Shown here: positions 13,232-47,700 of the stretch, piece after piece | Layout: each line of letters begins with the position of its first letter | How positions within the stretch are numbered: position 1 is the first letter of the stretch | Assembly (NCBI RefSeq): GCF_037042905.1 | Contig: NC_087252.1 | Span: 2,916,001 to 2,980,000 of the forward strand | Direction: 5' to 3' | DNA length: 64,000 bases | DNA from: Lytechinus pictus | Lineage: Eukaryota | Position numbers and translations under genes: made by a program | Notes under the pieces: model-generated | Seen by the model: the letters and a program-made list of their open reading frames with translations, nothing else | Databases searched by the model: none | Told to the model about the DNA's origin: nothing

Positions 13232-13581
13232 TACATAATTACCTCTACCATGTCTACAGAAACATAAACACCGCCAGCTATAAGCTTCATAATAATGAAT
13301 AGCGTGTATAATAAACATTTAAACGGCGTATTTACTGTATGGAAAGCATTCTACATTTATAATTATTGACGGGACTACCCTTCAAAACAAAACTAAATGA
13401 ATAAATGAATTCAGTAATGGAACTGCTCTGTCAACGAGTCGTGCATAACGTATAAATATCTTTTAAATCTAATTAATGGACGTCGAAAAGTTCTAAGCAA
13501 GAAATCTTATAGATGCTGCTACAATATGAAGATGTGGTTGTTATATTGTTACATCCCTTTATTTTGCAGACGATTTTCATC

Positions 13582-20235: not shown

Positions 20236-21047
20236 TGGTCTTCGTAACATGGATACACATAACTTGTTTCCACTGACAATTACAACCGTCTAAATAAACA
20301 TGAAATAACTGCATAAAGGATAGTGGGAAATGTGGGGTTATTAAGAGAGTGATTGAACGACGAAAGTGGTAATTGGTTCTTCAATCATGTGTCAGATTAC
20401 TGAACATAGTTAAACTATAATGACATCAGCGCACACATCCGCACACACCCACTCAAAATATTTGTCTTCTGTTTTTGTTCAATACCGAAACATAATTTGG
20501 TTGTTTGAAGGGTCAATAATAAAAATATATCCGGAACCAGAATATGCAATCAAGCTTCAATATCTACCATCAGGTCACTCATGTATTTTACATTCATGTA
20601 TTTTAACATAAGATACGCAAGCCTAAATTTGTGGCTTAGCAGTAAGACAAGATACACACATTGGACGAATGGTCAATATGGCCAATGACCGATACGGTCG
20701 CTTTAAAGGGGCTGTGCTTGCAAATAAGGCAGCCAGGTAAATTCTTATGGGCTAAAATACGCGAAAGTGATAACCAAAACAATGCTATCGTTTTCTAAAA
20801 AAATGTTTAATATTTCTACTGCAAAACGAGTCTTAGATATGAATATATCGTTCACGGAAAAATGAAACATTTGATATACATTGATTGGCATTTAAATATT
20901 ACAAAACTGGAAATTCATTTTCAAAATGCTTCGAAGAAAAGCAATTTATTTATGCTACTAAAATATAATGTATATCACAATGATTGATAACAATATAATG
21001 AGTTTAAGCTCTTAAGTGGCCGATATCACCGACAACAATAAATTTAA

Positions 21048-21632
21048 AAAAATAGACACCTCACGAAATCCAATTTTATGATATATGTCATGAACACATA
21101 ATTATTATATATGACCTGAGCATGTCCTTCCAAATAATTTGATTTCATATTCATGTGGTATGTGTTAATGCTTCGATGACCAGGAGGTATTCTTTGCAGT
21201 GATGTAAGTTTTGGTTTGCGCCAAATTAAAACAATGACTACAATGGACGATTAAGATGTCAATAGTGTCATAATCCTAAAGCCTTGTATCAACATTCATG
21301 TCAATAATCAGTAATTTACATTGTGATTGTTTAATAAAAACATTTTAGTATCAATTCTCAAGTTAATTAATGGATTGGTAGAATGTTCACAAACTCATTT
21401 AGGATTTTGACTTCATTGGCGTCTGGATTCATTCATTGCAGTCATGCATTTCTTTGGCGCAAGTAAAATTTACATCACTGCAAAGAATGCCTTCTGATTA
21501 TCCAAGCATGAAGACATACAACATAAATATGGTATCAAATTATTTAGGATAAGATATTTTTCCAGCCATAATAATTATGTGTTTATGACATATTTTCCCT
21601 TTAAATTTGGGATCTGTGAGGTGTCAAGTTTT
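21048..21632. mobile_element. Degenerate foldback/MITE (~600 bp)
   Basis: gacacctcac/gtgaggtgtc, cataattatt/aataattatg and attctttgcagtgatgtaa/ttacatcactgcaaagaat form nested inverted pairs. Confidence 0.7.
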
Positions 21633-23340
21633 GTTTTATAAATTCAATCAAACATGCCCCCCAAGGAGAAACAATGGGTGGTGGCATTAAACGCTTCACA
21701 CTTTACGTTGATAAAAATCACAACATGTATGATACGCAAATAAAGGAGCCAATAACGTCACACAAGTATTTCATATTTCCATAATTATGATATATTACAT
21801 ATTTCATATTTTCTAAAAGAAAGAAAACATTTGTTAATTCATCATGGAAATATTTGGAGAAGCATACAGAAGATGCTTTATCAGCATATTTAACGTATCC
21901 CCCTCAAAAGAATGAAAATATATGCCATATTTAAACAAAATTAATAGCAACTTGAACAAACATGTAAACATCATCGGCTCCATCAGCTGCATCCCGTCAA
22001 CCATTTGAATTATTATTATTATTTTAATCAAATATAACAATGCATACAAATGTCATCAATTTATTTTAACATCTGATTTTTAAGCGATTTAAAAAAACAC
22101 AATATAGCTCATTTCCTTTTTCTTATTTTCTTCAAGTTATTTTTTTTGGTAGACTTTATAAGCACAACGACCAAAGCAAGCGATTTAATTAAAAAAAGAA
22201 AAAAATACATATTATCACATTGTCATCAGATTCATGAAGAAAATGGCTCTTTTAAGCCAAGCTAGAAGACCAAAAAACGAATTTCTTTCTTTTCAAGACA
22301 TCAAAGTAATCCGTGTGTAATTTCGTTAATTCTTTTAATATAATTATTGTTCTGATAAATTAGATTCTATTCCTAAACAAACAACGTAGCATTTAAGTCG
22401 TATTTTTCCTTTCCATACGTCAACACATAAAAAGTACTCAGAGTGTATTGAACTATTCACATATTATTAGTCCTCACATATAGCATCCTTTGTCTACCTG
22501 AATAAAAATGAACACACATTTATATTTTTTACAGTATAAGCTTTGCTCTTCGACTTATATCTTGCAAAACAGAAAAGGGTCAAGAACCAAGCAGTAAAAT
22601 TAAAAGGTGCGACACCATTGTCATTAACGCATTTGTCTAGCAGAAAGCAAAATAATCATAATTCTAAGAAAATGTCTAATATCAAAATTATCAAACAAGA
22701 CATATTTCACACCTGAAAACTATTACTGTTGTTGGTTTTGTACACTTTGGAGGCAACGGTTTTAGGCACGATTTAAAACATCATCGGTGGTAATCACTAT
22801 TACGTAATTTCATATTCGCATTTCGTTTGAATATGTTTGTTCTTGGCATAAACTTATTATTTTTTTCAATATTTTATAAATTCTAATATGTACCATGATT
22901 ATAAACAAAATATATATTATATCAAAATGATGAAATGACTACAGAGAAGTTATGATATCTCATTATCTGAATCAATCGAATCGTACAATAAGAAAAAAAT
23001 TATGTATGTGATATTAACTTCAAGGCAGTACTGGCTGTTGAAAGATTAGAGCAAGAGTCTTTATCTCGACCAATCTCTACGAAAACAAAGCTTAGGATTA
23101 AGAGGTACTGCTTAATTATTATTATATCAATTAAAATCTCAACATATTCGACCCAATGACTAAAAACTTTCTCAATTGCTGAGTTACTCAATAATTTGTC
23201 AATCTGAAAAACTCAAAACCCAAACCTGATTGGCTCAAAAAAGGAATGCTACACACGTGACTTGTTTTAGAATCCTTCATGATTTCATGTACACGGGTCA
23301 ATCCTTCCAATGGTAACTTACATAAAGGTTAATGCACTTT

Positions 23341-23730
23341 TTAAATCCACCCTCCAGTTCCAGTGATATTAGTATTTTGTAACAAACCCGTGCCCTTTAC
23401 AACATCCGCTTCGTCACGAGAGGGCGTCCTATAGGTTGAAGAGGGCGCTGTGCTACCTGCGTAGCTGCCGGTATCCGAGGACGCGTACGGAATCGGATCT
23501 TTTCGCAGCGTGTCCGGCGTTTTCGGTTTCTTTGCAACCGGGGGCGGGGCAGAGTTTTCCGTCTTGGCGGTTTCCTTGGCGATTGGAATTTCCTCATTCA
23601 CGGGTTTCGGCTGGACCGGTTTCGGCTCGACTGGTTTCGGTTCCGGATTCGTGTCCTTCTTAACTGGTTCCGGTGGTTTTGAGCTCGGTTTCTGAGATCC
23701 CTTCCCTCCAGAATTATACTTCACACTCGA
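23341..23730 (-). CDS. Mesh/SUSD2-like gene, terminal exon of long tail (isoform B), Pro/Lys-rich
   Basis: ttgcag|TCG phase 0; SSVKYNSGG...PKPVEPKPVQPKPV...TGGWI*; stop TAA 23341-23343. Confidence 0.8.
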   Translation of the reverse strand, partial: SSVKYNSGGKGSQKPSSKPPEPVKKDTNPEPKPVEPKPVQPKPVNEEIPIAKETAKTENSAPPPVAKKPKTPDTLRKDPIPYASSDTGSYAGSTAPSSTYRTPSRDEADVVKGTGLLQNTNITGTGGWI

Positions 23731-26700
23731 CTGCAAATATAAACAGAGGGAGAGAGAGAGAGAGGGAAAGAAATATATGTATCGGATTTAAGCATTAATG
23801 CATATTATCGTTTCTTTTGCTGTAACGGAAAACAATAAGAGACATTGACACCCCCTGCACCCCCCCCCCACAAAAAAAAAGGTTTACATGGTGGTGACGG
23901 ATGTGCGTAATTTGTGATATTATGAATAAGGGAAAATTCACATATGGTTACTTAAAAGAGATTAAATGTTTGTTGACAGGGTATTTTGAAAGCGTGACAA
24001 GGGATACATTGAATGGTCGAAATTTAGGGGAGAAAAGATAATGTAAAGATGCAAAGCGGCATGACGTTGGAAAAGAATGCAATCAAGAAATAGTAACACG
24101 ATAGCAATTCTTTGCTGCAAGGATAAGAAAACATCGACCACATGCATTGATCATTTTTTTTGTAATCTGGTCTTTCCTAGTATTCCGTTGATGCAAGATG
24201 AAATATGGACATTTTGAATCTGAATAGATGTAAACCGTGTCCATTATTGTTTATTTATGTCCAACTTGTCTTTTTACCTAACTTTACCACGTAAAGTTTT
24301 TTATGTATATATTAATATAATGATTTCATGTATATGTATGAACGAGAATTAAACAAAAAGTCCTTTTAACTACAGTTTTAAGAAAATGATTTTAGTGTTA
24401 TTGATCCTAAGTGATTGTAAAATGTAATAAAGTGTTTAACAGAAAAAAATGCGTGACTGAATCGAAATATTTTCATAAGTCATTACCCTAATCATGATAT
24501 TAAATGAGAACACATTTTTTTAAATCAAATTTATTTTAAAGTTATAGAGCCCATTTGAACACCGCGATATATTGGCAAACATCTAATATAAACCAACAAA
24601 ATATGTAGATAGTAAGAGCTACCTGGGAAATCGCGGTGGGTTTGTAGATTTGAGCGGACGGACCCGTGTTCCCCTCGCTAGACTTTTGGGAGGATGATGA
24701 TCTGGTGGATGCTCGCACATCGGTGGGTTTCTTATTCAGCGGCTCCGCGAGCTCAGCATCTCGGTCGTCGGTGGACTTAGACTGTTTTGATTTCTGTGAG
24801 ATTAAGGGAGGTCAAAGGTCATGTACTTAGTTGGGAGGGGCACCAAAATATATATTTTGATGATTTCATGTGTATAAATTTGTGGGAAATTACCATCGTG
24901 GGGAAATACTCTTTAAATATCAATTCCAAAATAATTTCCCCCTTGAACACAACATCCGAATCCAGGTACAGCTGTTTCAAGTGGAATTATAAAGCAGTTG
25001 TAGCTACATATGTTATTGATTTAGTATCAGTATTGATACTTGAATAAGACTAATTCTGAATATTTTTTGTTTTTATGTGGCCCATGCAAAGATGGTATTT
25101 GCATTTAAGAAATTTATTCGAACAGTACGCGTATGTTTTTTTTCTGTGCGTATTGAAGAGAGTAGAATTCAACAGTGTTGATTATTGTTGTCAATATAAT
25201 GTGATGATATATTAAAAAATCAAGCCTCATGGTTATAATTTGCTATGATTGCTAGGTGAACTTTGTGTGATGCGAGAAAAAAAAACGTTTTGCTTAAAAC
25301 ACTAGAACAACATACTGAAGGAAATGAGTTGCTTAAGAAATCAAGGTAAGGTCTGTTATGGAAGAGATGGTATGTATATCCGTGTTATTGTTATTAAATC
25401 CGGGCTTCAACTGTTTCGTTCACCCATTATGAGTCGTCAAAAATGACACAATAAAATAACACACTCTTAACAATTAGTTTAAACTGTATCCAATTCTGGT
25501 TGAAAACTACCCAGAGTTGGATAACTTCTATAATTACATATAATTGTTGTGTGGACAGTATGTTGTCCAACACTTCAAGAGTGTAGGTTTTACCAATTAC
25601 ACAGTAAAGGCATATGTTGCTAATACATGTAGATCTACATTGTGTGTGATTGAATTGGAAAAAAGGCAAAATTTATAAATGAAAGCAAAAGGAAAATGCG
25701 ATTGACATGCAAGTTTATGGTTCATATAGCAATTCTGAGGCTTTTGAAAAAGGGTATTTAATAAAAAGAAATAGGAGAGGGAGAGAGACAGTGAAAATAA
25801 AGAAGTGATATTGACAAGCATGATGTACGGTCAAAAGCTTGATAGGAAATGAGGATAACACATCACACAAAAATATAGGAATATGGCGTTGATGAGCTCT
25901 TTCGTGGAAACGGAGAAGATCAGAACAGAAATAAAGTATAATAAAAGTGTTAATCTACGTGTACTTAATTTTAATTATTGGCATATAAAAGTTAATATAT
26001 TTAAGAGCGACATGAATAACTTTATAAGCTATTTTGCCAGCCCGCTTGGAGTTCGCATTCATCTGCGTTTATTGGCGCCAATCTGACATAAGATTGACTT
26101 CTCCCAATTAATTAGCCATATCTAAATATATAGGTGACTGCCAAATCTAATTAAAAAGTGATAACTAATTATGCCCTTATACATCCTCTCAGTACACAGA
26201 TAGACTTGATTTATTATTCACAAGAAAGCTGAAACTGAATCACAAACTTTCAGATAAATTAACATCTTCATTTGTTTTCTTTCTCCGAAAAAGCACCCCA
26301 TGCATCTACCCTTAACGGAAGTAATGTCACATTTTCTTTTGGCCAATCCCGTGGCACAATACCAACACAGTTTCAACAATAAATGTGTCTTGGTAATAAT
26401 TTACCAGAATTAACAAAGTTCAATTAATTATGTTATTACCGTAAAATTTTCAACCATTATGTCTCCACTCACATGACTAAAATTAGCTTGTTAATAATGA
26501 ATTCATGTCGTTATATGTCATTCATACGGCGGTGGGTCTTCATGCGAAATTGAGTTTTTTTTAGCTTGCAACAAACACTCGAATTCCCGTTTACTTCATC
26601 ATGTTCACGTCGCATTTCGAGTATTTACATGGAAGGACGAGCTTTCAGTAAATCGCTGGTCCAGACCAGCTCCGGGCTGAGTTGCAAAACGTTGAGTTTA

Positions 26701-29700
26701 TGAATGCCCGTGCTAAAATAGCCTGTTCCAGACCGGTACTTTTTTGACGCCGCTACTAGAAGCAACAAACCTGTGCCATCAATTATATACCCTAGTATTT
26801 GAATTGGTGGTCGTAAAAGTAGCGCCGCCCTGCTATGCAGTTACTGAACATGTGATGCGGACTATTTCAGTGCGAGCCTGGTGCAGACCAAAACATCCAG
26901 AGTTACTAAAAACGGTAAGTTTCACAATGCGACTTTAAACGTGACGCGAGTGTTTGTTGCAAGCCAGTACAACCAAAACATGCTGAATTTCTTGTCTTTT
27001 TAGGAATTTATGCTGCAGAAAGCTGGTACTTACTTTATGTACCTCATAGCGGCCTTTAGATCCCTGTATGATGAGTTTTGATATTATAATATATTAAATA
27101 TGAATGGAAATTTTCTCTTATAAGGGCATTTTTCATAGTTTAGGGTACTTACCCCTCCGTAACCTCGATAATTCGATTTCTGTGGAGTGACAATGCATGG
27201 CCAAATAATGACAAACTATGAACTGATTGGAACTGAGTAAATATCAACAATTCTGAACACATTGTAAAGAAGAGTGGTTTGAAAATGAGTAACAAATATG
27301 TCCCTAAAAATTTACACTGGGAAAAGTTCTCTCCACATGCAGACTTTTTATCCAAGTTTTAATTTTAGTGTTGGTCTGATCACTAATTTACTAATAACGA
27401 CAATGTTTGGGTGAGTAAAACGTGGAATGGAGGAGATATGAATATGTCTGTGCATAATGTGCTACCGTCATGCAACGCTCTAACAACCCTCACTCCCGGA
27501 AAATATTCTGTGCAGTCAAGGTACATTTCGTTTTCCCACAAAAGAAAAAAAAATCTACTCTGATCCATAAACGATGCTGTTGTCTAAAATAGATGTCATG
27601 AAAACCAACAGTACGCATTGTAGCGACATTTCCCCATGCACAAGAGTGTTTGAATGGATTTGCTTTGTTTTCCGAGATATCGTCGAAAAACGTAAACTCC
27701 CTGCCATTAGCCTCGTTAAGACGTGGGATCCGGGTCAAGGGAGAGTTACTCCGACCAAGATACTCCTAGGATCCCACGTCTGATCGAGGCGACTACGAGA
27801 ATTAAATCAGTCGACATTCATTATACCACTTACCTTCTTTTTGCTCTTATTATAATAAAGGATTCCGAGGACGACTAGGAGGATGATGATGATGACGGCG
27901 AACGTGACCCCAACCGCGATGCCCACAACGTTGACTTCATTTCCAACTAGGGAACATGGTAAGAAAGCATTGAAGAAAATGATGATGTCATTTGGCAAAG
28001 TATGAATATTAATCAGTTGAATACGGGATTATGTAGTTCCACGACTGATGGGATCAGCCTCATGTAGTTGGAAATTATTGTACATGTTCAAAGGCCTCCT
28101 TACAACAGGTCCACGATCACGACTAGATATTAAATTTGCCTTTATTCTAATATGGATGACAGCATAGTCGCAGGTTTGAATGTAGGTATTCGTACGATGA
28201 TTAAAAACATCACGCAGTAAGATAATTCATGTTTCAATATCAGCATCAAATTTTAATACGTTTTGTTCCGAAATAGGGTCGCAGAGCGATCGTAAGGTGT
28301 GCGGTGGCCTTCACGCATACACCTCTTTCTTAAAAGGAATTATCCATCCTGTTGTGAAATATTGCGGGCCTACATGCATTTTTATCACGTTAAAAATTAA
28401 TACCAGTATGCATTTATTCGGCAAATCGGACTTGGAATAAAGTCCTTGTATGTGGGTCGACTCTCTTCTAATGCTAGTAGGTAGATTCGAACTTGGAACC
28501 TTATCATTGCATGCGCAATGAGTACACCATGACGCCATATTGACGATATTATGCTCTGGGTGTTCAAATCACTGTTTTTATTGAGATTCGTGCTTAATAA
28601 TAATGAGGTGAGGTTTTCTTTGACAAAATAAAAAGTATTAGGAATCTCGTCAAATCTTTGCCAGGTATTTAAAAAATAGGCATAAATCTTGCTATAAAGT
28701 GCACTTTCCCAGATTTCCAATTACTTTGTACATGGCTTTAAGGTGGACTGTGAAAATGTGTAATTAATAGTCGCTCCAAGCTCCGACATAATTATGACAA
28801 AGACGATTTTTTCGGAAAGATCATGACCTGGCAAGCGGTATGGACAGTTTGGATATTTTTTTATTTTGTAATTTTACATTCCACTCATGAGCATAACGAG
28901 GTCTTTGAGATTTGAGATAAAAAGGAAGTTTTTTTTAATTCGCTTACATAAGAATTTGTGATTTAATGATTAGCTATATTCGTTTTGAAATATTTTTTTC
29001 ATCACATCAACTGAAGGGCTACATCGTGTATATGTTTTTTTTTCTTCCCAGCGTCATATTTAGGGTTTATTAAGTCAAAGACTACACATCATGAATATTC
29101 ATAAACATGAATCGTAAAGCTATAGAGTAATTGGCAAAAAAACCCAAAGCAAAACAAAAGACAATTGTGGGACACTAGGATAATTGTAAGAATGGTAATG
29201 TTGCGGGTTCGGATCCCAATATGGGCAAAAAATTAATATGAAATGCTTATATTCATTCTATCTTGTATCACCATATCTTTATACCCATAGACAAAGGATT
29301 ATGCACCAACATATAATTTTAATCGCAAGCTATGCTCCTCTTGGGGCCCTTCCGATTTTTACTTGTAAATTTTGTATGTATTTGCTTTACTTATGTTTTT
29401 AATGGAAACGAATGAAAATAATTAAAAATAAATAAAATGACATATTGGACGCTATCTTGAAAATAACCTTTTTTCTGGATGCGGATTATGGTAGAATATT
29501 AGTTTGCTATTAATTAGGTCAAATAGTACCACAAACATTTGAAAAAAAAAACATTTGTTGCTATTTGTTTGGGGTCTAGCCATACATTGACACGACTACA
29601 TAGGCAATTAATTAATATGAACAAAAAAACTATCGAAATTAAGGCGAGACTTTGTATAGATCAAAGTTTCGTAGCTTAAAAATATCGCTTGCACATTAGA

Positions 29701-32700
29701 ACATGCCAAGGACTGGGAAGTTTGGTGTAGCTCCCTTCCAAATAACGATTATAATGAGCTGCGAACAGCAATTCTTTTAAAGCACCTGCAGGACCACACA
29801 CCTTAATATCATTAATTGCACTTTTAATAATACCTACTTATACTGTGAAACCCAACCTGCATTATTGCGAGTCCTATAAATTGATCGCGATGATAAATTG
29901 TATATTCATATATATTTCACACACGAGATATACATGTATATAAGTTTTTATTAAAAAAAAAGCGTGATAAGCATTTGTGGTATTCCTATAGCTCATAAAT
30001 ATCGCAATTTTCCTCTACATCGCAGTTTTTTTGGTAATAATTGATAGTAGGCCTATACATCATTGTTGAATCGCCTTTCGAAGTGAAAGTGGGATGGGCT
30101 GATGATAATACGCTTGGATGAACATTGTTACCATATTCGAACGAGGGGTGGACTTAAGAAAAGAAACCCAAACTATTCAATATCTAAGACTAACACACAC
30201 GCACAAATATTTATTTTGCCTACGACCATGAATGTTGGTAAAGATTAAGATGTGAATAAACAAGTCTAGAAAAAAAAAGAATTGATGAAAGAAAACCTGA
30301 GATACTAATTATGTCCATGATTTTTCATCTAATATAGAAGTATACAATACATTACCGGGGCCGCGAAGCGGGGGGGGGGGGGGGCGGCTGGAGGGGCTTC
30401 AGCCCCTCTCTTTTTTCCAAAACCGTGTACAAAAACGTAACAAATGACCATATGATTGTAATTTGTTTGCATGGTCAGCCACCCCCACTTTTCGCTCAGC
30501 CTCCCCCATCCACTTTGAAAACCATTCCGCGGCCCTTGCATTAAATATCTATTTTGTATTTTGATGAATGAAAATCGTAATTAGTCACCCTTGCGTCCTA
30601 TTTATTATTATGCTAACAATATGGATTAATCGAATTGTATTATGATCAGTCGTGTTTATCATGATTGCGATGTTAAAAAATGATGGGCATCATTTGGATA
30701 ATTAAACCTGGGTCAGTATGGGTTTAATCCTATATTCAATCATTTTACTTCACACTATATTAAATAATTGTTTACATATTCTTTATTTGGTTTTCATGAA
30801 AGGGTTTAAGTAGCAAAGAATCCCTTGAAATTTCATGTACACGGATATGATTATATTCAATCCATTTTTGGAAACCTTTCATCAAATGATTTAGATTAGC
30901 CTATTTGTATAGTTGGCAACTGATATTACATCGAGGTGTTTAAATTTATGCTAATAGAACATCACCAATTGAGCTTCTAATAAACATGCAATCGTGATAT
31001 ACATATATATATATTCACACACCATGATAGCTTATGTTATACATGTTGTTCTTTATAACGTAAACACAAATCATTTTCCTGATTCTGTAACAAACACCAA
31101 AATGAAAAAAAAAAGAAACAGGCATTGGTGAACATTATTGGTCATATATTAACATGAATTGTTGAAGGGGGATATTTGACTATAAACATGATAAATGGAT
31201 TTAAACGGGCTGTTTCACAATAAGCCTTTGTAAAAAAATATTATGCAGACCGTACGAAAGAATGGAATTGGCAAACCAGGTGATTTTTCTAATCAAATTA
31301 TAATACAGACTGTCGAGATATGCTAAAAAAGTACATTGGGCAATCCATATTCAATTCTTTTTTGTATATGATTAAGTTTTTCATTGATTTCACGATCAGC
31401 ATAATAACAAAAAGAAAGAAAACAATCACTTACATTAATTCATAACGCACTCTTCTTCAAGACATGCCTTATATAAATAATATACTTTTCGAACATTAAT
31501 GTCAAATGTAACTTCAAACTGCAGAGCTTCATTGGATGTCCTTTCGGTCTTTCACTTATAGCTGATCGCCATTTTGGAGCGTGTCTACAGTGTGTTCACA
31601 TGAAATCAAAAGTGTGTTCACTGCGTATCACCAGTGTGTCAACAGTGCACCAACAGCATGTCCACAGTGTGTTCACAAGAAATCTACAGTATGTTCTGAA
31701 TGTGTTCATTTTATCAACAGTGTGTTCACAGTCAGTCCACAGGAAATCGACAATGTGTTCACAGTCTGTTCACAGTGTGTCAACAGTGCATCAACAGTGT
31801 GCTCACAGTGCGTCCACAATGTATCAATAGCGTGTTCACAGTGTTTCTACAGTAAATCAACGGTATGTTCACAGTGTGTCTATAGTATGTCCATAGGGTC
31901 AAGATGTGATTCAGAGTTTTGAGAATCCTAACATTTAACCGCGTGAATACAGTCCCACACTGTGAACACCTATGCGGTTCCAGTGTTCACAATACGTTCA
32001 CATAGTGGACTATGAGAAAATGTGCCTTACACTGTTCAAATGCTCATATTAATGTGAAGAGAGTTTCACATTGAGCTGCTCACTGTGAGCACACTGTGGA
32101 TGTGGGACAGTGTGTTGTTTCAAGCATGGCTAAATGAAAAAGGAGATAATTTATCCACGCGAATAATATTATCAATAATAAAATCGAGTCATGCTGGACA
32201 CAATGAATGAAAGACATGCACATAATGTATTTTAAAGACGACTCGGCGATTTAAAATGATTTATAGGTCGGCGAACAAAGCCAGGTCATGAAGGTGTTTG
32301 TAATTTGGAATGGCGCGGTTGACGAGGTGATACGTCACAATGGCGCGCCAGACGGTATTGTTTATGCGCACAATGACAATAATTTATACTGGGCGCAAGG
32401 AGCGCCCATATTTTGGCGCGCGCGCCTAGGTGAAGGCGCGAAAAATCCTTCATTTTAGTCTTGGCTTTCAACGGAGATGAACGTCCAAATGTTCGCTTGT
32501 AATTTTCCCACCTCCTCCCCAACAACCATCCATGTAAATGTTACGTTTGGGTCAAACAATGTTGGAATGTTTAAACACATGCAATGGGGAAGGTCGAGAA
32601 TGAAGATACTCTAGGTATCATTCAGAGTTGATTTGTGTTTTATTGGAGTGTATAGCTCGTTATGAATGGAATAACGGATGTAGAATTGTTGTATAATAAT

Positions 32701-35700
32701 ATGGACATTTGAATTATTTTACTTACATGAATTTAATGTTGATTTATATAACGAAACACGAATTCAAATCCGGGGGCAGTTTGCCTGGTCGCACATCAAA
32801 ACAATATAAAGATTGTCGTGTATTTAGAAATGTGGGCCGTAAGGGAATTTTATCCTTCTGATCTATTTTGGTCTGTGGTCAGGTGGGTTTTCGCCCTTAC
32901 CCGTTTTTGGGACTGGGTGTTCGTTATATTTTGGTAATTCACATGAATTGAGTTCTCATATTATTGGCATGGCATATGTTCTTTAATCCACAATGGTCAC
33001 TTTTGCAAGGTGTGTAAAGCAGTGAATGATATTTTAGCCTCTAGTTATTAGATTTTCCACTTTGATGCCATGTACGTTGATTAATATTTCATATTGAATC
33101 GGGTCCTCATTCGGTACCTAGACGAAGGGGATTTATTTATAACTTTACATAGTACTTTAGGAACGCAATTGTAATTTGAATGTAAGGGTGTCACGCTCGA
33201 ACTTTCAGTTTAGGCCTCACCTGATCTCATAGGCGGGGAGGCTGGTATTCTGTATACATTTATATTTTTCGTGAAATTTTGGCCTCACCCAAGGTCTCAT
33301 GCGGGAAGGCTGGTATATATATGTATATTATATGATATAAGTATGCCATCTGTAATCCACCGATTTGCCGATAGCTCATACATGTAGTTAATAGCTGTGC
33401 TGGTATTCCTGTCCGGCTAGCAGAGAACCAGTGGGAAAGCAGCCGTGAAATTTAACGTTGAATTTTATGGGAGGGGGGCCTTCTAGCCGGGGGTTTAACC
33501 CCCCTTCGGGGAGCTAAACCAAGGCTATCGGTTGGTTCCAGACATACATGAATGTAAGTCTCTAATCAGAGGTATTCATATCCATGTTTTATACTTATGT
33601 GATTGTGACACCAGATTCGGAAAAGTGTTCATCTCTATTGAATAAAGCCACGACATAATCGCATATTATTTTGTTTTGTCATTTTGTTTGCCGAGTATAA
33701 TACCTAGTAGAGTGGCATATCCTAAAATGACCTGAGTACAAAAGAATCTGACAATTTGTCTTCTTGCAAAATTATTATTTATTCGTGCATTCAGTAAAGA
33801 TTTGATTGACATTTTGTGGCAAGGCTTATAAAATACGATGTGATGATCGTTATCTAATATAAATGGAATGTGAAACAATTTACTATAGTATAAAGGGAAA
33901 TACCTATTCTGTATTTCCTGATTATTTATGAATAAAAATACTCTCAATAAAAAAAATCATATTATTCAAACTTATTTTTAATCAACATTTAAGATAAACA
34001 TGTCAATACTTGTGTCTAATATGGATTGATTAATGCCGGTGCTGAGAATTAGTAAATACCACAAAAATGTATTTATTGACAAATGAATACACTAGAAGGC
34101 TGGTTATTTGTGTCTTTCCCTTTGAATACAGCATTATCTCACTATATTCACGGTCGTTCTGTTTTATGCCTTCAGGTTCAAGAAACAAATTTTTGTTTTG
34201 TTGACCTCTTTTTTTCTAATAATAAAAATGCCACATCACATGATACAAGTGGTTACATACAAGTTCATGTCATACACATGTGTGTGTATTAAACAAGTAA
34301 AAAAAATGCGTGCACATGATTTTGAATACTCGTCGATCTCCAATTTATTCATATTTAGACGGACTTTGTGGAACTGTTCCAGAGAACGCTAATGTCAGTA
34401 AGGATTTAATAACAAAATCCGTGGCGTTTTTCGGACAAAATAGAGAAAGAGTCTGACAGAGCCCTCGCTTGCAGTGGTTGAATACTTGCGTTTTTAATAC
34501 ATTACCTGTTTGTGTATTCTCGACTGAATTCTATTGTAGTACCTAGCGTTCTCGAGAACGTTCCCGTTCTCTAACGCAAAATTATCATTGATAAGTAACA
34601 AGACAAAGACAATGAAAACAAAAAGCCAACTCTTCCCCCTTCCACTATGCCTAAAATTTGCAGAGAGTAATGACTTACCATATCAATCATCAATTCACAC
34701 GCTCTGAAGTCCTGAGCTTCAGCATTTCCACATTGTTAAGATTTTCCAGTAATAAAAAAAAGGTAAATTGAATACTTGTATGCAATTAAAAATATATTAT
34801 ATAGTAACACATACAACCTAATATTAATGCGGTTTTGCACTTTGTGCCGAATTGCATCTGTATTAAGATATTCTCTGAAAATTGGAATGAAAAACTCACA
34901 TTATCTTCCGAGCCAATCTTTTTTTCATTTTTTTCTATAATTTTATTACTATATACATTTCCCTTTTTCCAAATATGAGTCATATTGGGAAAATATATTC
35001 CAGCTATTTTTCATGTTTATTACCGATTTGTAAAGAATGTAGCGCATCCATGTACATAGAAAAGTTGCAGATTAATTAAATTAATGTTTCTGTTTTTCTT
35101 AAAGCGAATAGATATTGTGCTAACATAGTTTTCTATCTATTGTCATTAAAATACATTATTATACTAGTTTTTGACCGTATGAATTATTTACAGCGTATCA
35201 TCATTTATGCAATGCTTCTATTTACAACTATACAAAACTACATGTGTCTTTTATCTGAATCTTGACATTCAATAGCCTCCTATATAAATAATGCATTTGA
35301 CTTTATTTGTATTATTGCTTTAACCTTATAAGGAGTAACGAAGAAATGTTACTAAAGCTTAATGTAACAAACGGAGTAACTGGAATACAATAAGCACTCT
35401 TTAGCACTACGGAGCACAACACTAATTAGGAAACAACTTTTTGGTGAAAATGGAATGTAAAGTATATTTGTATATTTATATCGCATAAATTCTAAGAAAA
35501 GGAAACTTGAACAGATGAATGTGACATTTAATGCCAGGTTAAATTTATACTAAATGTGATTACGGCTGTTATGTAATGCACTGACGGCTACAAAGTTGTT
35601 GTAATGAAAGTATATTTTCAATTACAGCATTCTTTAGGTATTTACCAAACAATATCAAACATATCAAAAGGGACTAATCGACAGCGAAAAGAACATTACA

Positions 35701-38700
35701 GTATTATTCAGAATCCTGAACAATAAATTGAGGAAAAGGCCTGGCATTTATACCTCGAATTTGTTAATCTGATTTATATTTACATATTTTCATCGATAAC
35801 TTCGGATAATCAAGTCCTGGTTGATGCTTGATCATCTGACTAGCTCCCTGCTTGGAATTGGTTGGATGAGTACTGTGCACCTTGCGCTCTATGAAACGCC
35901 AGAGCTACTGCCTTTCTACCTGTCAACCTACCCTGGTAAATACAACCCCAAGACGAATCCGAACGCAAGTCGACCAGCACCACCTACATGTCATTATATG
36001 CCGTCGCCATAACTTCCATGGGTCAACATATATTTCTCTCAAAATTGAGGGACTTGACTACTATTTACACTAATCGATGGCAGTGCACCAACCAACTCCA
36101 TAATGTCATGTATTTCTTCGAAAGCGAAGGCTGTGAGATATTTCAAGGACTATAAATAAGGTGTTTCATTGGATGGTTGAGGCGTTTTTGCTGGGACTTC
36201 TGCTGTGTTGATATGCTCCAAGCTCCCGGTGTCGTTCTCCATACCCCAGTTGACCTCTGCCTCCTTGGTAGAAACCTTAGGTCTGTTCGTAGATGAAGTG
36301 TTGGTCATGGATGATAGGAAAAGGAAAGGGGAAGAAAATATGTCGGAGTTGGAAAGGAGCCAGTGAGGAACAGGAAGCAAAAGTGCTACTAACTGCCAGA
36401 AAAAAGGATCCCTAATTGAACTATCAATGCAACCATGGCAACGTGAATGGTTGAGCATTTCGTAAGATAGGAAGTGTAAGAAGTAAATATGCATTTATGT
36501 GTGAATAGCATTGAAAACGTCTTCATGAATTAATTCCTTCGATTAAATGATTTTATGAACATGGCATAACCTTTATCAACATGATTGAGAATATCATTAC
36601 ATTTATCATCTACATCTATTTAGTATATAATCACCAATGAGTATTATAATCTGGTAACATAAATTTACTTATCGAAATCCTGACCCTGAATTTTAAATAT
36701 ATTACCTCTCTAAACCTATGACATATTTATTTATTTTATCAAAGTGTTTTGCAATTGATTGCGGCTTTGGAATAATGATAAGGATCTTAATTTCATTTCG
36801 AGTATTTCAAGTCTCCTAAGTCACCTAACGATTCAACAACAATAAATACTAGCTGTGAGAAGCGTTTCTTCGTGTAATTTGAAGACGATTTCACTGATAA
36901 ACTGCTCTCAGTAAAATCGGTTAACATTGGTTAAGTTGCTTCGGACATCAATAACTGACTACGAAGTTTTTGAAAATTACCTTGTCAAGTGAATGAAGTA
37001 ATTGTAAAATTTTCTTGGACCAACCAGGAATTTTGGAATTGAGGTTTCTGAAAAGAGGACTAACCTCGGTAAACATCGCGATTGTCCTCAGACAAGGGCC
37101 TGGTCGTTCACAGAGTTACGGCAGATGTAAAAATCAAACTAAAATTGAAATCGGTTGGAATTAAAATCTCTTGACCAAACCATTATACTGTAGATTGTTC
37201 GAAGAGGAGTTTTATTCCAATTCCTTTTGTAAGCTGAGTCCCACATAATTCTAAATACACTCACGAGAACAATCAAACAGTAGCCCTACTTAAAAACAAA
37301 ATAAGAAAGCTACTCACGCTTGTTTCTCTGTGTTAAACGAACCGTACTGCCAATACCGAAGGAACACGAAGACACCAACGACGACGAGTACGATAAAGAT
37401 AAGTGAAAAGACCACGCTGAGGGCGATGACGAGGGCGTTATTGTCACCGGGGACGATGTCGCCATCTGGGCCAATATGATTAGGACAGGGCAGAGAAATG
37501 GGGACAGAGAAAGGCTAGAATCAACCGAGTGGGGTTATTAAACTGTATGCATGGTATGAGATGGGGACTGTGGGTGCTTGGACGGGGTAAGTTGAACGTT
37601 GATTAGTGCATATTACAATTTCGTCAAAATTTGAAAGTACATTTTAATCTGCAAACAAGTTTAAATCTATTTTTTTAATGGCATGTAATAAAAAACCGTT
37701 TTGTCTGATATGAACCGCTCGGAAATTTCAGTTTATTTTGCTCGATATGAATTGCCATTTTTCTTGCCATTTGCTCTGTCCATACTTTACCTTAAATAAT
37801 GACACATGCTATAATTTACATGTACATCAGATTATTATGTCGCTTGATATCTCCTAACCATTTTAAACATATTTCTGGGCAAAGAACGCGTGTCTTCAAC
37901 TTAATTCTAGTGAGTAAAGGGTAATTCACAAATACAGCTTTAAAGCCCCACCCCCCGTCTCTCATTCTCTTTCCGACATATTACTCTTTCTGTACTACTC
38001 ACAAACACACACACGCACTCACGCACCTCAACATCCTTCACACAAAGGAAACCACACACAAATTTGCAGTTTCACCTTTCTTCTCTCCATATATTTGGAT
38101 TCTGTCACGTTGTATCTGAAGTAGCTTTCTCTCTCTATCCCCCTCTTTCTTTCGTTACCCTCACACAGGCACCCAGAACATACATACACACGCACTCACA
38201 CATCCTCACCAACATAAACTAAAACACATGCGCGCACACACCATCCATAGGCACATAGTTATTGCGCGTCTAAGGTCAAAAGCATTTTACTTCTGGACCA
38301 CTATGCCCAATATAGTCCTACGTGACAAAAAAATGTTTTGAACCGAGGTGGGGTTTCAGCCATTTAATTGGAACGAAATGGAAAAAAATGTGATAAAAAT
38401 ATAGAAGAGGGCATGTTGGGAAGGTAAACTTACCGATGCATGTCGGGGCGGCACTGGACCATATCCCGTCCTGGCATACAGACTGCATGGCTCCACTCAA
38501 CGTAAAACCATCCTGGCAGGCGAAAGATGCTGTAAGGCCATCCTCGCTCAGAGCGATGGAGCCATTTGCAGGGGTGTCCATGCCGCCGCATGTGGATTCT
38601 AGGGCATAGAAATGAAAAAGCAAACAAACAAAAACGTGAAAACGATGACATCAGCATACTACCGAAATATAATTGTAATAAGAAATATTATCAAAAAAAG

Positions 38701-41700
38701 AAAAGAAAGAAATATAGTCACTCTATGTTGGCTAGAGTTTTACTAGTTCTTATATTAATTGTGTTCCCTTTCAATAGTATATCAGAATGAAATTCAGTGC
38801 TAAAACGAAAAAAAGGTTCCCGAGCCATTTTTCTATGCATACAAACGACATTTAAGAGGTATAATTTTATATTCCCATTATTATTGTTTTTTTCCACTAT
38901 TGGTATTATCTTCATCATCACTATGACCCTTTTCTTACTCCCTTTTTACGTTTATTACATATTGCAGAGGTATAGATTGAGTTTGTGGATTGTTCCTAAA
39001 AGCCTAGGACATTGTCAAAAGCTCTTACCTATACATTCATTATCTCCTTCTGATCCGGTCCATACAAGGCTTCCTGCCTCCATGTCATATTCACATCGTT
39101 TGAATGATGAGCCAACCATTAATAAACTTTCATCGCAGGTAAATGTGACCTCAGCGCCTTCAAAATATTTATTCGAATCTGACGAGTACGACTTTGTGCC
39201 ATTGTAAGGTGTAATCAGATACGGGCATGAGTCGACTACGTATAGGAAAGAAAGAGATTATTTTTTTCAAAGATGCTACGAATTAAACAAAAAAATGTAC
39301 ATTAAGCCCATCTCAAGGTGAGGAAGAATTTTCGAATATTGGGAGTGTGAGTTTGGAAGCGCTGAAAGAATTTTGCTTTGTAAGTAGTTTATTTTATCAG
39401 GGAGGCCCTTCCAGCAGTATACTTTATTTTAAAAGAGGTTCTGAAAAACTAACAAAATGAGGAAGATATGCATAAAATATCCATATCACAGTTCCGATGC
39501 AAATACGTTCTAGCTTATGCATTGTATGAAACAACTAAAGATGGATAAGCAACGGGATATCTTGAAGGCAAAATTGAAAATAGCACAATTATTGATTATT
39601 CCATGTATTTTTGCAGGGATCAATTTTCAAATAAATAAAAGAATAGTACATTATATAGACAATAATAAGAGGAATATATATATTATGTATGCCTATGTTT
39701 TAATTATAACTTTGCAAGCGTATATGTTTTTGAATAAGAATTCCTCGCTTCCACTGGAAGCTGGTTCCATAGAACCTCGATGGGAAAGGGAAACCTCATG
39801 TTTTATTCTATAGTAGGCTTACTTTTACGAATGTTTTCCGAGCTGCTCTCAAATTCCTCGTAAGCATCCAATGTAGCCAGGGCTAGTTCCTCATCGTCAT
39901 TTGACACCTCGTAGTCGAACAGACACTGGTAAACGTTGTTACATGGTGGGTAAAGGGTAGGGAGAGCTACGTTCATACGAGGAACGAAGGACGTATTGTG
40001 GTAGTGGGAATGGTCCCTGTTTGACACATATCGGAATAGGGTGTAATCTGCTTCGATCTCCCCTGTTAGAAATTAAAATAGATAATAAGTTTAAAGGGAT
40101 GGTCCGGGCTGAAAGTATTTATAGCTTAATAAATAGAGTAGAATTCACTAAGCAAAATGCCAAAAATTTCATCAAAATCGGATAACAAATAACAAAGTTA
40201 TTAAATTTTAAAGTTTAGCAATATTTGGGGAAAACAGTCGTCATGAATATTCATTAGGTGGGCTGATGATGTCACATCTCCACTTGTTCTTTTGTATTTT
40301 ATTATATGAAATGAGGTTTATTCAATTATTTTCCTTCAAGAAGTAGAAAAATTGGAATGACAACTGATTTAGTGCATTAGATATTTATTGCTGCAACTTA
40401 TTTCATTACAAGGGAGACATATTATTCACACAAGTATGAAATAATGAAAAAATAATGATTTTATGTAATAAGATAAGAAAACGAAAAATGGAGATGTGAC
40501 ATCATCAGCCCACCTAATGAATATTCATGACGACTGTTTTCACAAAATATTGCTAAACTTTAAACTTCAATAACTTTATTATTTGTTATCCGATTTTGAT
40601 GAAATTTTCGGCATTTTGCTCAGTGAATTCTACTCTGTGTATTAAGATTAAATATTTTCAGCCTGGACCATCCCTTTAAGCGTTAGACGTGTTAGATGCT
40701 TACTTAGGGTGGAATACGAGAAGATTATAACTCAACGTTAGATATAAACTCAACGTTAGATTCGCATTCAGCGTTAGATGTAAACTCAACGTTAGATTCG
40801 CACTCAGCGTTAGACGTGCACTCAACGTTATAGATTCTAAGTCAGCGTAAGATATAAACTCAACTTAAGAAACGAACTCAACGTTAATATAACCCCCAGG
40901 CTAGATTTGAAAGCAGCGTTAGATAAACTCTCAGCGTTAGACTAGAATTATTATTCAGCTAGAGAGAAGTGTAGGCCTATGCTTAAAAACTGTGAAAAAG
41001 GTATTTTCCGTCCCATTCGCCCCTTCTTAATGGGTCCATTTTTTTTAGCATGGGCGGAACCCAGTTTTCGGAATGGGGGGGGGGGGGGGGTAAAAATGTG
41101 TTATTGTTGTTGCTGTTGTTGACAAGCATAGAATGATAAATAAAGTTGGCCATCTTTGCTATCTACAAATGTGTCTCCCCCATAATTTTAGGAACAAAAT
41201 CTTTCCCAATTCAAAACATAAAAGTGTGTGATAAAAAAGGGAGCTTCCGTCACTACCCAGTGCCCAGGGAGGGGGTAATATTCGTGTACATAGTGGCAAG
41301 AATGGGGGGGGGGGCTCTTTGGGCACCCCGACGCCCCCTTCACCGAGACTAGGATAAGGGCCTGTACATTATGTTTAAGTTCCCATGATAATATTATAAA
41401 CAAGAAACACCTGCGAGAAGGTAATGTCATCATGGTTTTTCTTACATGATTGGCCAAATTGGAAGATCTCTTCATCTGTCGGATCCTCAAGTGGGGTGTT
41501 ACTATTTCTTGCCTCCAAGTCGTTGCTGGGGTCACCATCCATGTTGCCTAGCAACCCAGACAAATGATCGCTCTGGTAAAAATATATATACAAATGGTTT
41601 TAGATACACTCTAAAAAACGAAGTGCTAATTCAGCTCTTAAAGAGCGTGTATAGTGACTGCACTTCGGAGTGCTGATTTTCTAGTTCAAATTTGAACGAG

Positions 41701-44700
41701 AAAATCAGCACTCCGAAGTGCAGTCACTATACACGCTCCTTAAGAGCTAAATTAGCACTCCAGTTTTTAGAGTGTAGAAGTGACATCCAAATTTATTTTG
41801 TAAAAATGACAATGATGATGATAAATGGCAATAGTTATGATGATAATACGACTATTACTTCTACTCCTTTCCTATTACAAATGGTAATAGTGATAATAAT
41901 AATCATAATGATAATAATCGTAATTCTTATAATGATAATAATATGAAATGATAATGATATCATCAATAACACTAAGTATAATCACTAGTAATTAGATGAC
42001 GATAACAAATATTAAAATTATTCTAAAAATTATATGATTATTAGTGCTGATAATTGTACGAATTTCAAGAGTGCTCAATTAACTTCAAATGTGGTGTAAA
42101 ATTGAACACTTTGTGTTCGAGATTTCTAACACGATTGACTATCCAAAGTTAAATATTAGATGAAATGCTAGTTCATAATACCGAACAAAAATGTTAAAAG
42201 CTACTGAAATAGTTGAATCTAATTGGTTGAGAGCAAGTTTGCCAAAACTTTCCCTGACATAAAGAAGATAGCATGTCAGAGCCAAACCAACATAACCGAC
42301 TCAAAAACGACCAATTGTATGTCTTTAGTAATAACGTAATGCCTTTGGTAGGTCTCGAGTCGGATTCACGGGTGTAGCTGTGGTGAAAAGAAGCATATCT
42401 TACATCTATTGTCGACGGCAGGATTGGTTGTACAGCAAGCATTCCGTTGTGGTAGTTGACTGCAACGCCGATACCGGTTTCTTTGAACATGACGACGACA
42501 CCGTGGATCTCGACATCGAGTTTAAATTCTGTGACGCCCACGGCACAGCCTGGAAAAAAAAATCGTTGAAGTTTGTAAGGTTGTAAATATCACAACTATT
42601 CTACATCGTTATATCTGGTGTGTATGGATGTTTCACATTTTTTTTAAATTTCTCAAGACTATCTCAATTTTTATTTGCTTTTTAATTAAGCTGAATTGTT
42701 ATTAAAGACCTGAGGCAATATGTAACATCAGATTCTTAAGAGGTTTCAAAATCTGATGACAAAAAAGGAACGAAAAAATCAAAATAAGAGAAAGAGAAAA
42801 TAACTAACATTTAGTCTCTGCCGGGCTTTATCCTCAGCAATGCTTTCCAATTCTCTAAATTTAAGTAAAATTGCATGCGTCATCTTTTCATAGAGAGCAG
42901 GGGCTTCCAATCATTTAAACATGACAAAGCACTATTATTCGATTGGAAATATATTCGTTTATTAGCTGTATCAATCCTTACAAAACTATCAAATCAGGGC
43001 CGGATCTAAAATTCAAAAGGCTGGGATGTCAAAAAATGCATATCATTTGAATTTAGTGGAAATTATATTTTACTATTTATCCGACACTGTGGCTCAGTGG
43101 TTGAGCGACCACCTCTTTAACAGGAAATCGCTCAAATCCGGGATGAGACCTAGCAACCCGTGAAAAATGAGACCTTCTTCCTTTTTGTCAGCCTCTCGTT
43201 TTAGAAGAGTTTTATGTTTTGCTCGACAGAAAAAAAAAACGATCACAGGAGCTAAAGTGGCAACATTGGGTAAATAAGTATTATTATCACCATTTACCTC
43301 AATTAGGCTACGTCATAATGTGATTTCGAATTAAAGGGATACTCTGGGCTGAAAATTTTTATTTCTAAATAGAGTAAAATTCACAAAGCAAAATGATGAA
43401 AATTTCATCAAAATCAGATAACAAAAAAAGATATTTAATTTCAAAGTTTAGCAATATTTTGAGAAATCAGCAATATACACGTCATCATGAATATTCATTA
43501 GGTGGGCTGATGATGTCACATCCCCACTTTTCTTTTTCTTATGTTATTACAAGAAATCATAATTGTTTCATTTTTTCATAGATGTGTATATGATTTGTCT
43601 CCATTATAATGTAATAAGTTTCAGCAACAAATAACTAATGCACTTAATCAGTTGTTAATCCAATTGTTTTAGTTCTTGGTAGAACATTTTTGAACAAACC
43701 TAATTTCATATATAATAAAATACAAAATAACAATTGGGGATATGACATCATCAGTTTGCTCATTGAATATTCATGAAGACATGCCTAGAACTGTTTTAGC
43801 GGAATAATGCAAATCTTTAAAATTCAATAACTTTGTTATTTGTTATCCGATTTTGATAAAATTTTCTGCATTTTGCTCTGTAAATTTTACTCTATTTATT
43901 AAGATATGAATATCTTGAGCCTGGAGTATCCCTTTAATAACCGCCGTACAAGAAACGAGTTTGTTTTCCACTAACCTTGTAAATCTGTGAAGGTCTGCTG
44001 TGAAAAGTAAACTGACTGCCATTCTGCATTGTCTTCCGTGCCCCTTCTGTAAACGTCCATACCGCTGCTGGCGCTAGCATCCACAAAGATGGCATCCGAA
44101 CCGCTATCCTGCATGGCGACCGAAGATAGTTGAGTCACATCAACTTCCCTACCTAGTGGTTTCAAGTAATTGAAAATTGTTTGTTTGTATTTTTCCCCAT
44201 ATAGAAAGACAAAATATACATGTTAAATATCAAACATTGGTGATGTGACAGATAATCTATTTCAGGGGCAAAAAACTCAATTCACTTCAATTCAATACAA
44301 AGAAGAAATACAAAGAAACATTGAATGTGAGTTGATGCGAAATCAATCGCGTGGCTTTGCACGAAGGTAATAACAAAACTTGTAAGGCTGAATAGTCTAA
44401 AAAATAATAAGCAAAACATTGATAATAATATTAATAAAACATAAAATTTCCTACCAGTAATAAATTAAACGTAGGAAAAAAGAAAGAAAGAAAAACACAC
44501 AGTTATAGTACACTAAACACGATTTGAAGGGGGTGGGGTTAAATATGGCACAAGTCATACATTGACATCAACTGTTAAAGTTAATAATAATTTACGAGAA
44601 CATTTTTATACTGTTTTCTATAGGAAAATGTATATTGTGAATTAGTTATTATTAGTGGCATGGCACCAGTGCTAGTGTTCTCCATGGGGCATTTTTTTTG

Positions 44701-47700
44701 TTTGAAATTATGAAGTTAATGTAGGCCTATATTGTTGTTTTATGTAATTTTGCTAATTCTAGAGTAAGGTGGACCAATATCCTTTTTTGTCTCCTAAGGC
44801 CAAAGTGTCATAATAAACTAAGAAAGTACAAACAAATAATCATCTAATCTTTAAAACATATAAAAGAATGTGCAATATCAATTTCAAGAAAGAGATATAA
44901 AATCATCTTTACCGTTTATATCCAGTGTCTTTATCTGTCGCCCCTGGAGCTCGAAGTCAAATAGACCTGTCTTAGTCCCACTCATAGCATAACGAAGTAG
45001 GGTGTACTCCCCGAGCCCGTTGAATGTGAAGTTAGTCCTATCCATTGTGATATAATGAGGATCACCAAACGACAATGCTGCAATAATAATGATGATAGGA
45101 GAGTGACCATGTAAACATAAGTATGCATTGGTAAAAACAAATGAGATGGGGTAGCAGAAAAGAAGAAAGATAAAAACAATAAGGGGGAAAATACTGAATG
45201 GCAAGTAAATATTGAGGAGGATAAGCAGATGAGGATGACGAAGAAGAAGGACAATGACAAGGGGTCAAAGTAAAATAACAGTCAGAAAAAATCTTAGAAA
45301 AGAAAATCAACAAAGAACAAGGAAACGAGAAGGAAATAGATGAAATAAGTTAAAGATGAAAAAAAAGTAGGATGAGAAGGAACACTAGAGAAGTAGAAGA
45401 AGAAGACGGAGAAGAAAGCCAAAGAAAGTTCTTTTCAATGTAATTTAACGATTTTATAATGAAGAAAGTTAAGAGAGTAATTAACACGATTAATGAGGCT
45501 TACAATTTTTCATGTTTTATCGACGTCCAAGGCCCAGCTTAAAGAATGCTACAATTGTTTGAGGTAAGTTACAACTATGAACGGGTGGTCTCAGAACCTG
45601 AAATGCATCGGTCAAAGTATTGCAAACAATTACGAACAGGATTAAAGAGAAATATTTACCTATAGTTGGTGGTTCGTAAGCAACACAATCAGTGGTTGGT
45701 CTGACTTTAGTGTATTCGAAGCATTCCTTCTCGCTAGCCCATCCACAACAAAAGTGCATGGCAATGACGTCGTTGGACCAATGGGAAAGTTCTGGAACTA
45801 GATATCTCTGCCTGTAGGGACTTGCTCCTCGAATATGTGATCGGCCTGCCATACCTGCGTACCTCGTGTCACCAGAGTGCATCAGGAGGTTGTTTTCATC
45901 ATAGCAACATTTGGTACCGGACATAGTAATACGACTACAAATAAAAGAGGAAAGAAAAACACTTGCACGAACAAATCGCAGCAGATATTTCTTATTCTGG
46001 GCCTGTAACACAAAGTTTAGCGATTAATTGCTAATTTGAAAGAACAATCCTAATTAGCCTAGTCAGTTTACAGAGCGAAATGCGCAACGATGATCTTGAT
46101 AAGCCATTTCATTAAGTTATCAATCGCTTACTTTTGTGTTACGGGGTCCTGATGATGAGTAATATGTTGCAGTTGCGTATGTACGAGGGGCATGTGTCGC
46201 TAGCTACCAATCTCAGGATGACGCAAAAATAGTAAAGGCTTAGGGGGATCTTTGCTGCGTCATATTCCGGACAGGCGCATGTTTAGCTACATAGCCGGTA
46301 CCAATGTACAACAGGGGTTTTGGTAACAGAAGCTACATAGGGTTTTAAGAATACATATTTTGTATTTCATATTTCGTCACTAATTTAACCAGCTACATCA
46401 AGACCAGCACCGCCACCACCTATGACTGGAGTAACACCACCAATGGCTACAACAATCACGAATAACTAGTAACTACTTGCTAACACTATACGAAGTGTGA
46501 ATAATGACGAATTCAAGGTAAAGAGTAAGCGAAATTCAAGGACCTGTCTATACTGACCGTTAAACATTACGTCCTAGAACATTTAGGAAAGTATTTGACA
46601 TTTGGCAGTTCTCCAACTTTTTTTATACCATCTAGAGAGATAGCTGGCCGTTTTCTGTCATTTGCTACGATCAGATGAAAATATGGCTGTCTAACAACGT
46701 TTGAGGATAAAACAATGTTTGTCTGATGTAGTTTCGTGAGACAGTAATAAATGTATATGACAGAGTCTTGTTGTGAAGTGGAGGGGACAAACGAGAAGAC
46801 GCCCCCCACCCAGAAAAAAGAGTGAAATATAAAATAATCAATGTGGATTTGGCGCTTTAGAAATACTATATATTGTTATTATTATACAATGACGAGAAGG
46901 AAAATGGAGAGAAACAATAAATAATAAAACAAAATCAAAAGAAAAACAACTACGATAGAGCGATCGAGAAAGCCAACAAACCTTGCATAAGCGCTGAGAA
47001 CGCAATATATGGCTCCTTCATTTTCCGCACAATTTGCATCCGTGCTCAGAGTATTGCAGGAGGGGTCGGTGACGAAGGTCCCTACATCTTGTGTTGCCTG
47101 TTCTAAGGTGCACGGACAAGCCGGAAGGTTCTGAAATAGGAAAGTATGAAATGTCATTATCATTATTACGTTTGGAGTCACCCGTGCCAGGGAGGCGAAA
47201 AACGTACTGAATCACTAATGACCCGCAGGTTGACCCCTACTCTTATACGAATGGTGCAGTGGGTTCTTAACGCACAAAGGAGGTGACTCTGTTCGGAACT
47301 AGGCCCACATTTAACGTCGTATCCCAGGGACGGGGTGTTTTTCACTGTAACATAGTTTGCATCTATGAAACAGGGGAGGGGCATGTTTACACACAACGAA
47401 GGCTTCATTTATCGGTTCCATGATAATTGCTCCGCCGACAGTTGCTCCGTCGACACTTGCTCCGCCGATAATTGCTCCGTCGACACTTGCTCCGCCGAAA
47501 TTTGCTCCGCCGATATTTGCTCCGTCGACATCTGCTCCGCCGAAAATTGCTCCGCCGACAATTGCTCCGCCGACATCTGCTCCGATTATACGACAATTGC
47601 TCCGCGACAATTGCTCTGCCGATAATTGCTCCGCCGACATCTGCTCCGCCGAAAATGGCTCCGCCGTAAATTGCTCAGATAATGCGACAATTATTAATTT

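Follow-up and report, generated by a model that had tools for sequence, protein, structure and literature searches.

A 64,000-nucleotide (nt) window of the genome of the sea urchin Lytechinus pictus (RefSeq assembly GCF_037042905.1, contig NC_087252.1; G000:C8:2916001-2980000 in the numbering used here) very probably carries a single gene of the Mesh/SUSD2 family that splices one shared ectodomain to either of two membrane-anchoring cassettes, A or B, whose tails likely couple the protein to different partners or membrane sites. The branch point was the phase-1 donor of the last shared exon, which encodes the second Sushi domain (38434..38598; the gene and all of its exons lie on the minus strand) and was joined in RNA to both 37465 and 27946. 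The proximal cassette A consisted of a transmembrane (TM) exon of 148 nt ending in phase 2 (TM-A, 37318..37465; joint 38434>37465) and a terminal exon (coding part 36150..36282; joint 37318>36282) that reads NWGME and, further on, KTPQPSNETPYL before its stop. The distal cassette B consisted of a 113-nt TM exon ending in phase 0 (TM-B, 27834..27946; joint 38434>27946), a skippable in-frame exon of 57 amino acids (aa) found in RNA joints (B2, 24623..24793) and a terminal exon at which contigs begin (B3, coding part 23341..23730), closing with VKGTGLLQNTNITGTGGWI. The two proteins thus end in NETPYL (A) and TGGWI (B).

All of these exons were bounded by AG acceptors and GT donors, and both routes translated without a stop. 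The phases read from the letters in the original prediction, namely phase 1 at the end of the last Sushi exon and at the start of both TM exons, with TM-A in frame with 36150-36282 and TM-B in frame with 24623-24793 and 23341-23730, were therefore borne out. Joins from TM-A to TM-B or to B2 reached stops after a few codons, and a TM-A to TM-B joint was absent among the 14 joints of one listing and the best 15 of 27 of another, in agreement with the claim that the two cannot be joined in frame; because this join is out of frame, each protein receives one anchor. A scan for phase-1, stop-free segments between AG and GT that encode a strong helix returned only TM-A and TM-B in 14.7 kb; the upstream part of the gene (25.4 kb), the opposite strand and 60 shuffled sequences yielded no such segment. 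Mean hydropathy of the two helices was 3.4 and 3.3, and TM-A and B3 were each present in a single copy in the genome. The cytoplasmic part of A was about 57 aa long with a net charge of -3, that of B about 194 aa long, rich in K, S and P, with a net charge of +12. The tails had been described as lacking evident similarity, and this was upheld, with 457 of 500 shuffles scoring as high. The length (about 190 aa) and Ser/Pro/Lys-rich composition proposed for the B tail likewise stood, but its derivation from two exons overlooked microexons, a 6-nt insert and the skipping of B2.

RNA evidence was taken from eight of 24 listed runs (X1, X4, X7, X15, X17, X19, X20 and X22), of which X1, X15, X17 and X4 supplied contigs from two studies of the best-matching organism and X22 supplied raw reads of a second species; no listed run was on record as RNA, yet the contigs were spliced. 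The joint between the Sushi exon and TM-A was seen in five of the eight runs (contigs of X1, X15, X17 and X4, and 26 reads of X22), and was continued by the joint from TM-A to tail A in the same four contig sets and in 17 reads of X22. The joint between the Sushi exon and TM-B was seen in six (contigs of X1, X15, X17, X4 and X7, and 93 reads of X22). Depths of A and B in the four contig runs were 56.6/137.5, 74.5/100.5, 86/257.1 and 49.1/105.2. Both junction sets expected by the original prediction, 38434>37465>36282 and 38434>27946, were thus recovered in the same runs. The proposed choice between alternative last exons that swaps anchor and tail together was also supported, with one donor, two TM exons, separate stops and separate contigs for the 3' untranslated regions (UTRs).

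The shared ectodomain comprised 18 exons, all with AG/GT boundaries, which a beam search for the exon chain linked into 1076 aa without a stop. Thirteen of them, from the end of NIDO to the second Sushi domain, lie within the window (38434..60020, from splice sites and Pfam), and the exon chain places the remaining five, with the signal peptide and NIDO, beyond its end, up to G000:C8:2988652. Identity to the L. variegatus orthologue reached 1005 of 1076 residues. In that orthologue NIDO, AMOP, VWD and Sushi occurred in this order, all above the Pfam cut-off. The N-terminus was hydrophobic, as expected of a signal peptide, and each isoform had a single C-terminal helix. A GDPH motif, a self-cleavage site when it stands at the start of VWD, was found in that position at ectodomain residue 672, with the same letters in the fly Mesh alignment. 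The predicted NIDO-TIG-AMOP-VWD-Sushi architecture held for NIDO, AMOP, VWD and Sushi, but the Sushi domains numbered two, each with its exon in the window, and exon 58984-59262, between NIDO and AMOP and conserved in relatives, gave no Pfam match to TIG/IPT at E<=1. "Protein mesh" clusters ranked first in the ESM Atlas with a score of 0.97. In a FastTree analysis of 32 hand-chosen rows, in which P0137 stood for fly Mesh after a visual match to a published alignment, the echinoderm clade (support 97) was the sister group of a clade (98) of arthropod Mesh and a SUSD2-like protein, with a joint support of 99. Judged from domain order and phylogeny, the gene is a member of the Mesh/SUSD2 family. 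The AMOP exon had six matches in the genome, where the family has at least five members, and the gene is therefore a co-orthologue of Mesh and not a one-to-one orthologue.

The arrangement extends to other sea urchins, as conservation of both cassettes in related echinoderms had been expected to show. RefSeq isoforms named "sushi domain-containing protein 2(-like)" from L. variegatus (XP_041471015-021 and 054-059) and Strongylocentrotus purpuratus (XP_030833837-845) have identical ectodomains and A or B ends, those of 1168-1169 aa ending in A and the others in B (the listing covered 15 of 17 members of the main RefSeq cluster). They represent the same gene as in the window, with the same cassettes, microexon and B2 variants, as automatic models without comment. 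In the genus Diadema, whose split is about 200 million years old, an A end was found in a D. antillarum model and a B end in a D. setosum model. Identity to the window in Strongylocentrotus was 76% for each of A (70/92), B (156/204) and the ectodomain (799/1047), and in Diadema 57% (52/91), 56% (118/210) and 56% (575/1035), respectively. By these alignments the degree of conservation is about equal in the two cassettes and the ectodomain. Within tail A, NWGM and the last ~12 residues were almost unchanged out to Diadema. Tail profiles run against 144 distant relatives gave no B match and one weak A match, P0103 (E 0.089), and hence nothing significant outside sea urchins. Compared with three A tails, P0103, picked from those 144, gave counts of 0, 9 and 5 among 2000 shuffles; it is sister to the urchin clade (support 90) and keeps NWGME. 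Its sequence suggests that P0103 may carry an A-like tail and that tail A may predate sea urchins.

Both urchin isoforms are thus already implicit in automatic RefSeq annotation, and the alternative-last-exon mechanism is already known. A description of the urchin isoforms was not found in the literature searched, and Jonusaite 2023, Izumi 2012, Xiao 2017 or their supplements may hold one. In L. pictus itself the retrieved models split the gene. XP_063959437.1, to which the TM-A and tail-A exons of the window are letter-identical, starts in AMOP and has the A end only, and the annotation is split because XP_054761047.1 splices the N-terminal half into intronic reverse-transcriptase fragments. 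These frameshifted fragments lie at 53889-55207 (-) in a 10.7-kb intron. The present exon chain corrects the retrieved models, turning the split gene into one. Three features go beyond the routine: both tails are deeply conserved, B is spliced in layers, and convergence with arthropod Mesh is possible.

TM-A and TM-B were weakly alike (2 of 500 shuffles as high), and their profiles found each other first, which suggests duplication of a TM exon. Their best E values were 1.5e-5 and 1.3e-7; hydrophobic composition alone yields TM profile matches down to E 0.002, which counts against this step, and duplication is therefore probable, not proven. On sequence grounds TM-A and TM-B probably go back to an old duplication, in which one TM exon may have been copied within echinoderms, each copy acquiring its own tail. 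Arthropod Mesh shares with the urchin gene the NIDO-AMOP-VWD-Sushi-TM architecture with GDPH and falls in the same clade of the tree, but the urchin gene has two Sushi domains in place of one, and the tails are not alignable. The relevant sections of PMC4964579 and PMC9545526 describe fly Mesh as a smooth septate junction protein of the gut, complexed with Ssk and Tsp2A and needed for the barrier, and PMC4964579 mentions several C-terminal isoforms; insect Mesh is reported in a review (PMC13308350) to signal via arrestin to Duox. Inheritance of a two-anchor switch from the last common ancestor of arthropods and echinoderms, without a second origin, would fit the two different types of TM flank among the arthropod Mesh-like matches (P0137 and P0126). 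It is nevertheless improbable: TM-A and TM-B are more alike than either is to any arthropod TM, their profiles matched no arthropod Mesh TM at E<=0.5, the tail profiles found nothing significant outside sea urchins, and the sea cucumber and crinoid models retrieved have one end each. The urchin switch probably arose independently of the arthropod Mesh isoforms. A wider proposal is tentative and, on balance, rather doubtful: that a Mesh anchor switch evolved twice, in echinoderms and in arthropods, with one ectodomain serving both junction sealing and signalling or trafficking, that a conserved group of tyrosine-bearing microexons near the membrane tunes urchin B by cell type, and that tail A may predate urchins. 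A parallel arthropod arrangement, if true, would mean that a junction protein had acquired similar isoform designs by convergence.

Use of the TM-A acceptor would bring in the A stop and end the transcript at a poly(A) site belonging to A, presumably with coupling to polyadenylation, while skipping of TM-A would remove the whole A cassette within a 10.5-kb intron and lead to B. RNA of both forms exists, and distantly related sea urchins have retained them; A and B thus likely have different functions, and conservation of both tails suggests separate partners for each. B, the majority form, with its long basic Ser/Pro-rich tail tuned by microexons, could act in signalling and as a scaffold at the junction, and the compact A could follow another sorting route; the chances that this division of labour is correct are about evenly balanced. 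The signalling function of the tail and any septate-junction role of the urchin gene are putative.

It is quite unlikely that the two forms are instead interchangeable, with A either left over from an ancient exon duplication and tolerated, or useful only for the different 3' UTR that it brings. A and B do co-occur in every run with both joints, at ratios that are not strongly different, and in S. purpuratus one tandem paralogue has TM-A followed by a shorter, divergent tail; however, a redundant exon should degenerate with time, and NWGM and the last ~12 residues of tail A persist to Diadema in cassettes conserved like the ectodomain. An origin of the B exons from another gene or promoter at 28-36 kb, from the remains of a tandem paralogue or from misassembly has almost no probability left, even in a family that duplicates partially (a copy at C8:6.77 Mb and several tandem partial copies in S. 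purpuratus), given that five contig sets and the 93 reads of X22, which have 57 start points, join TM-B without an intervening exon to the Sushi exon that lies 10.5 kb upstream, that there are no ectodomain exons between the cassettes and that RefSeq models of two species contain the same join; the junction reads thus refute a second gene or promoter.

Several observations weigh against a functional switch between A and B in a Mesh protein. The share of A was ~20-43% in the five runs with both joints, contig depth being a rough measure. Tail A was present in X7 and the TM-A joint absent, and in X19 and X20 the gene was barely expressed (one read at the B joint). Ectodomain and tails were linked through joints, with no spanning long read. 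The A and B ends of Diadema belong to different species and not to one genome. The urchin ends, ETPYL (A) and TGGWI (B), differ from the STEV and VTDV endings of long fly and beetle Mesh, the S/T-x-V end being a feature of these long isoforms and not of the whole family. Finally, a sea urchin Mesh has reportedly been placed in the larval gut barrier by Jonusaite and colleagues in 2023 (PMID 36587799); the published Mesh could not be assigned to a particular urchin paralogue. The Mesh of the gut-barrier work is given as LOC580458 in PMC10250714 and could not be mapped to the window gene. If the gene does encode the gut-junction Mesh, probes, antibodies and knockdowns aimed at one C-terminus or 3' UTR would detect only part of the pool, and the single-copy cassettes would offer clean handles on Mesh tail function in a larva that is transparent and for which a gut-barrier assay exists.

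Switching of the membrane anchor has precedents. In LAMP2A/B/C and in Dscam1 exon 17.1/17.2, alternative exons exchange the anchor, in some cases together with the tail, and alter sorting, the LAMP2 tails being about a dozen residues long and Dscam swapping the TM exon while keeping its tail. The same kind of alternative-last-exon swap of TM and tail occurs in neuropilin-2a and -2b, which a passage of PMC8070368 describes as having identical extracellular domains and juxtamembrane, transmembrane and cytoplasmic parts that differ by alternative splicing. Neuropilin-2 differs in belonging to an unrelated family, and the urchin cassette B is multi-exonic with alternative splicing of its own.

Within cassette B, a 27-nt microexon encoding KSNYRGYGG (27153..27179, -) was defined by the joints 27834>27179 and 27153>24793, both present in X1, X15 and X4. 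In the second species (X22), TM-B mostly ran straight to B2 (61 reads, versus 4 for 27834>27179). A 30-nt microexon encoding GSKGRYEVHK (27034..27063, -) is bounded by AG and GT in the window and is included in RefSeq isoforms from two species, but none of the RNA joints listed contained it. The two microexons were never found together in the 18 of 18 B-type RefSeq models listed, and they may exclude each other because only 89 bases separate them. B2 was included in X1, X15, X4, X7 and X22 and nearly absent in X17, where TM-B ran into B3, its loose end equalling 23701-23730; inclusion therefore varied strongly, from almost none (X17) to about 60% (X4). Two islands of B2 were conserved, TDxRDxELxxPLNK and SAQI(Y/F)KPT. 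A 6-nt insert, AATCAG, ahead of TM-B was seen in 10 reads of X22 and also in RefSeq ES/DS variants. A motif search gave 31079..31084 (-) as a candidate position, unproven because GA, not GT, follows in the assembly, and the window contains no GT-flanked site for it.

The main 3' UTR of A spans 34322..36149 (-), contigs ending at 34322 with a drop in depth beyond. They end 22 bases after an AATAAA at 34349-34344, and contig ends and hexamer together make this the likely poly(A) signal of A. A minor extension continued to about 31368. The 3' UTR of B was at least 1.8 kb long (21555..23340, -; contigs 21555-22099 and 22149-23732). No Rfam family was found at 21000-41000 of the window. The long form of the A 3' UTR contains a degenerate 11-bp tandem repeat (31578-31900) and a dispersed element of 1476 bp (32223-33698), which was missing from the UTR contigs of X1, X15 and X17. 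Among 80 listed matches, 27 were full-length at 98-100% identity, the window copy included, and many other copies were preceded by a second copy of the last 737 bp. In X19 and X20 the element was transcribed mainly from one strand, with end-to-start joints present. These features suggest a mobile element that is non-coding, polymorphic and of recent origin, and that carries split direct repeats.

Further family members were found elsewhere on C8. A recent, ~90% identical duplicate of the ectodomain lies at G000:C8:6763338-6771634 (L011, L002). Its similarity stops at window position 38000, ahead of both anchors, and its model, XP_063959536.1, reads into the intron and then reaches a stop. A relaxed TM scan downstream of it gave only weak candidates, unrelated to anchors A and B, and the duplicate may be a secreted form or a pseudogene. 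Directly downstream of the window gene, on the same strand, is a distant Mesh-like paralogue, 30-45% identical and with its own TM exon (G000:C8:2882665-2904138; L019, L020, L022), and another was located at C8:34.31-34.33 Mb. In S. purpuratus, the tandem paralogues P0029, P0040 and P0041 keep TM-A with a divergent or missing tail, some with extra Sushi repeats. The window also holds two single-exon Toll-like-receptor-type genes, named by eye from leucine-rich repeats, a TM segment and a TIR-like end: one at 13513-16233 (+) with an open frame of 906 aa, and one at 2498-5095 (-) interrupted by a stop at ~3386.

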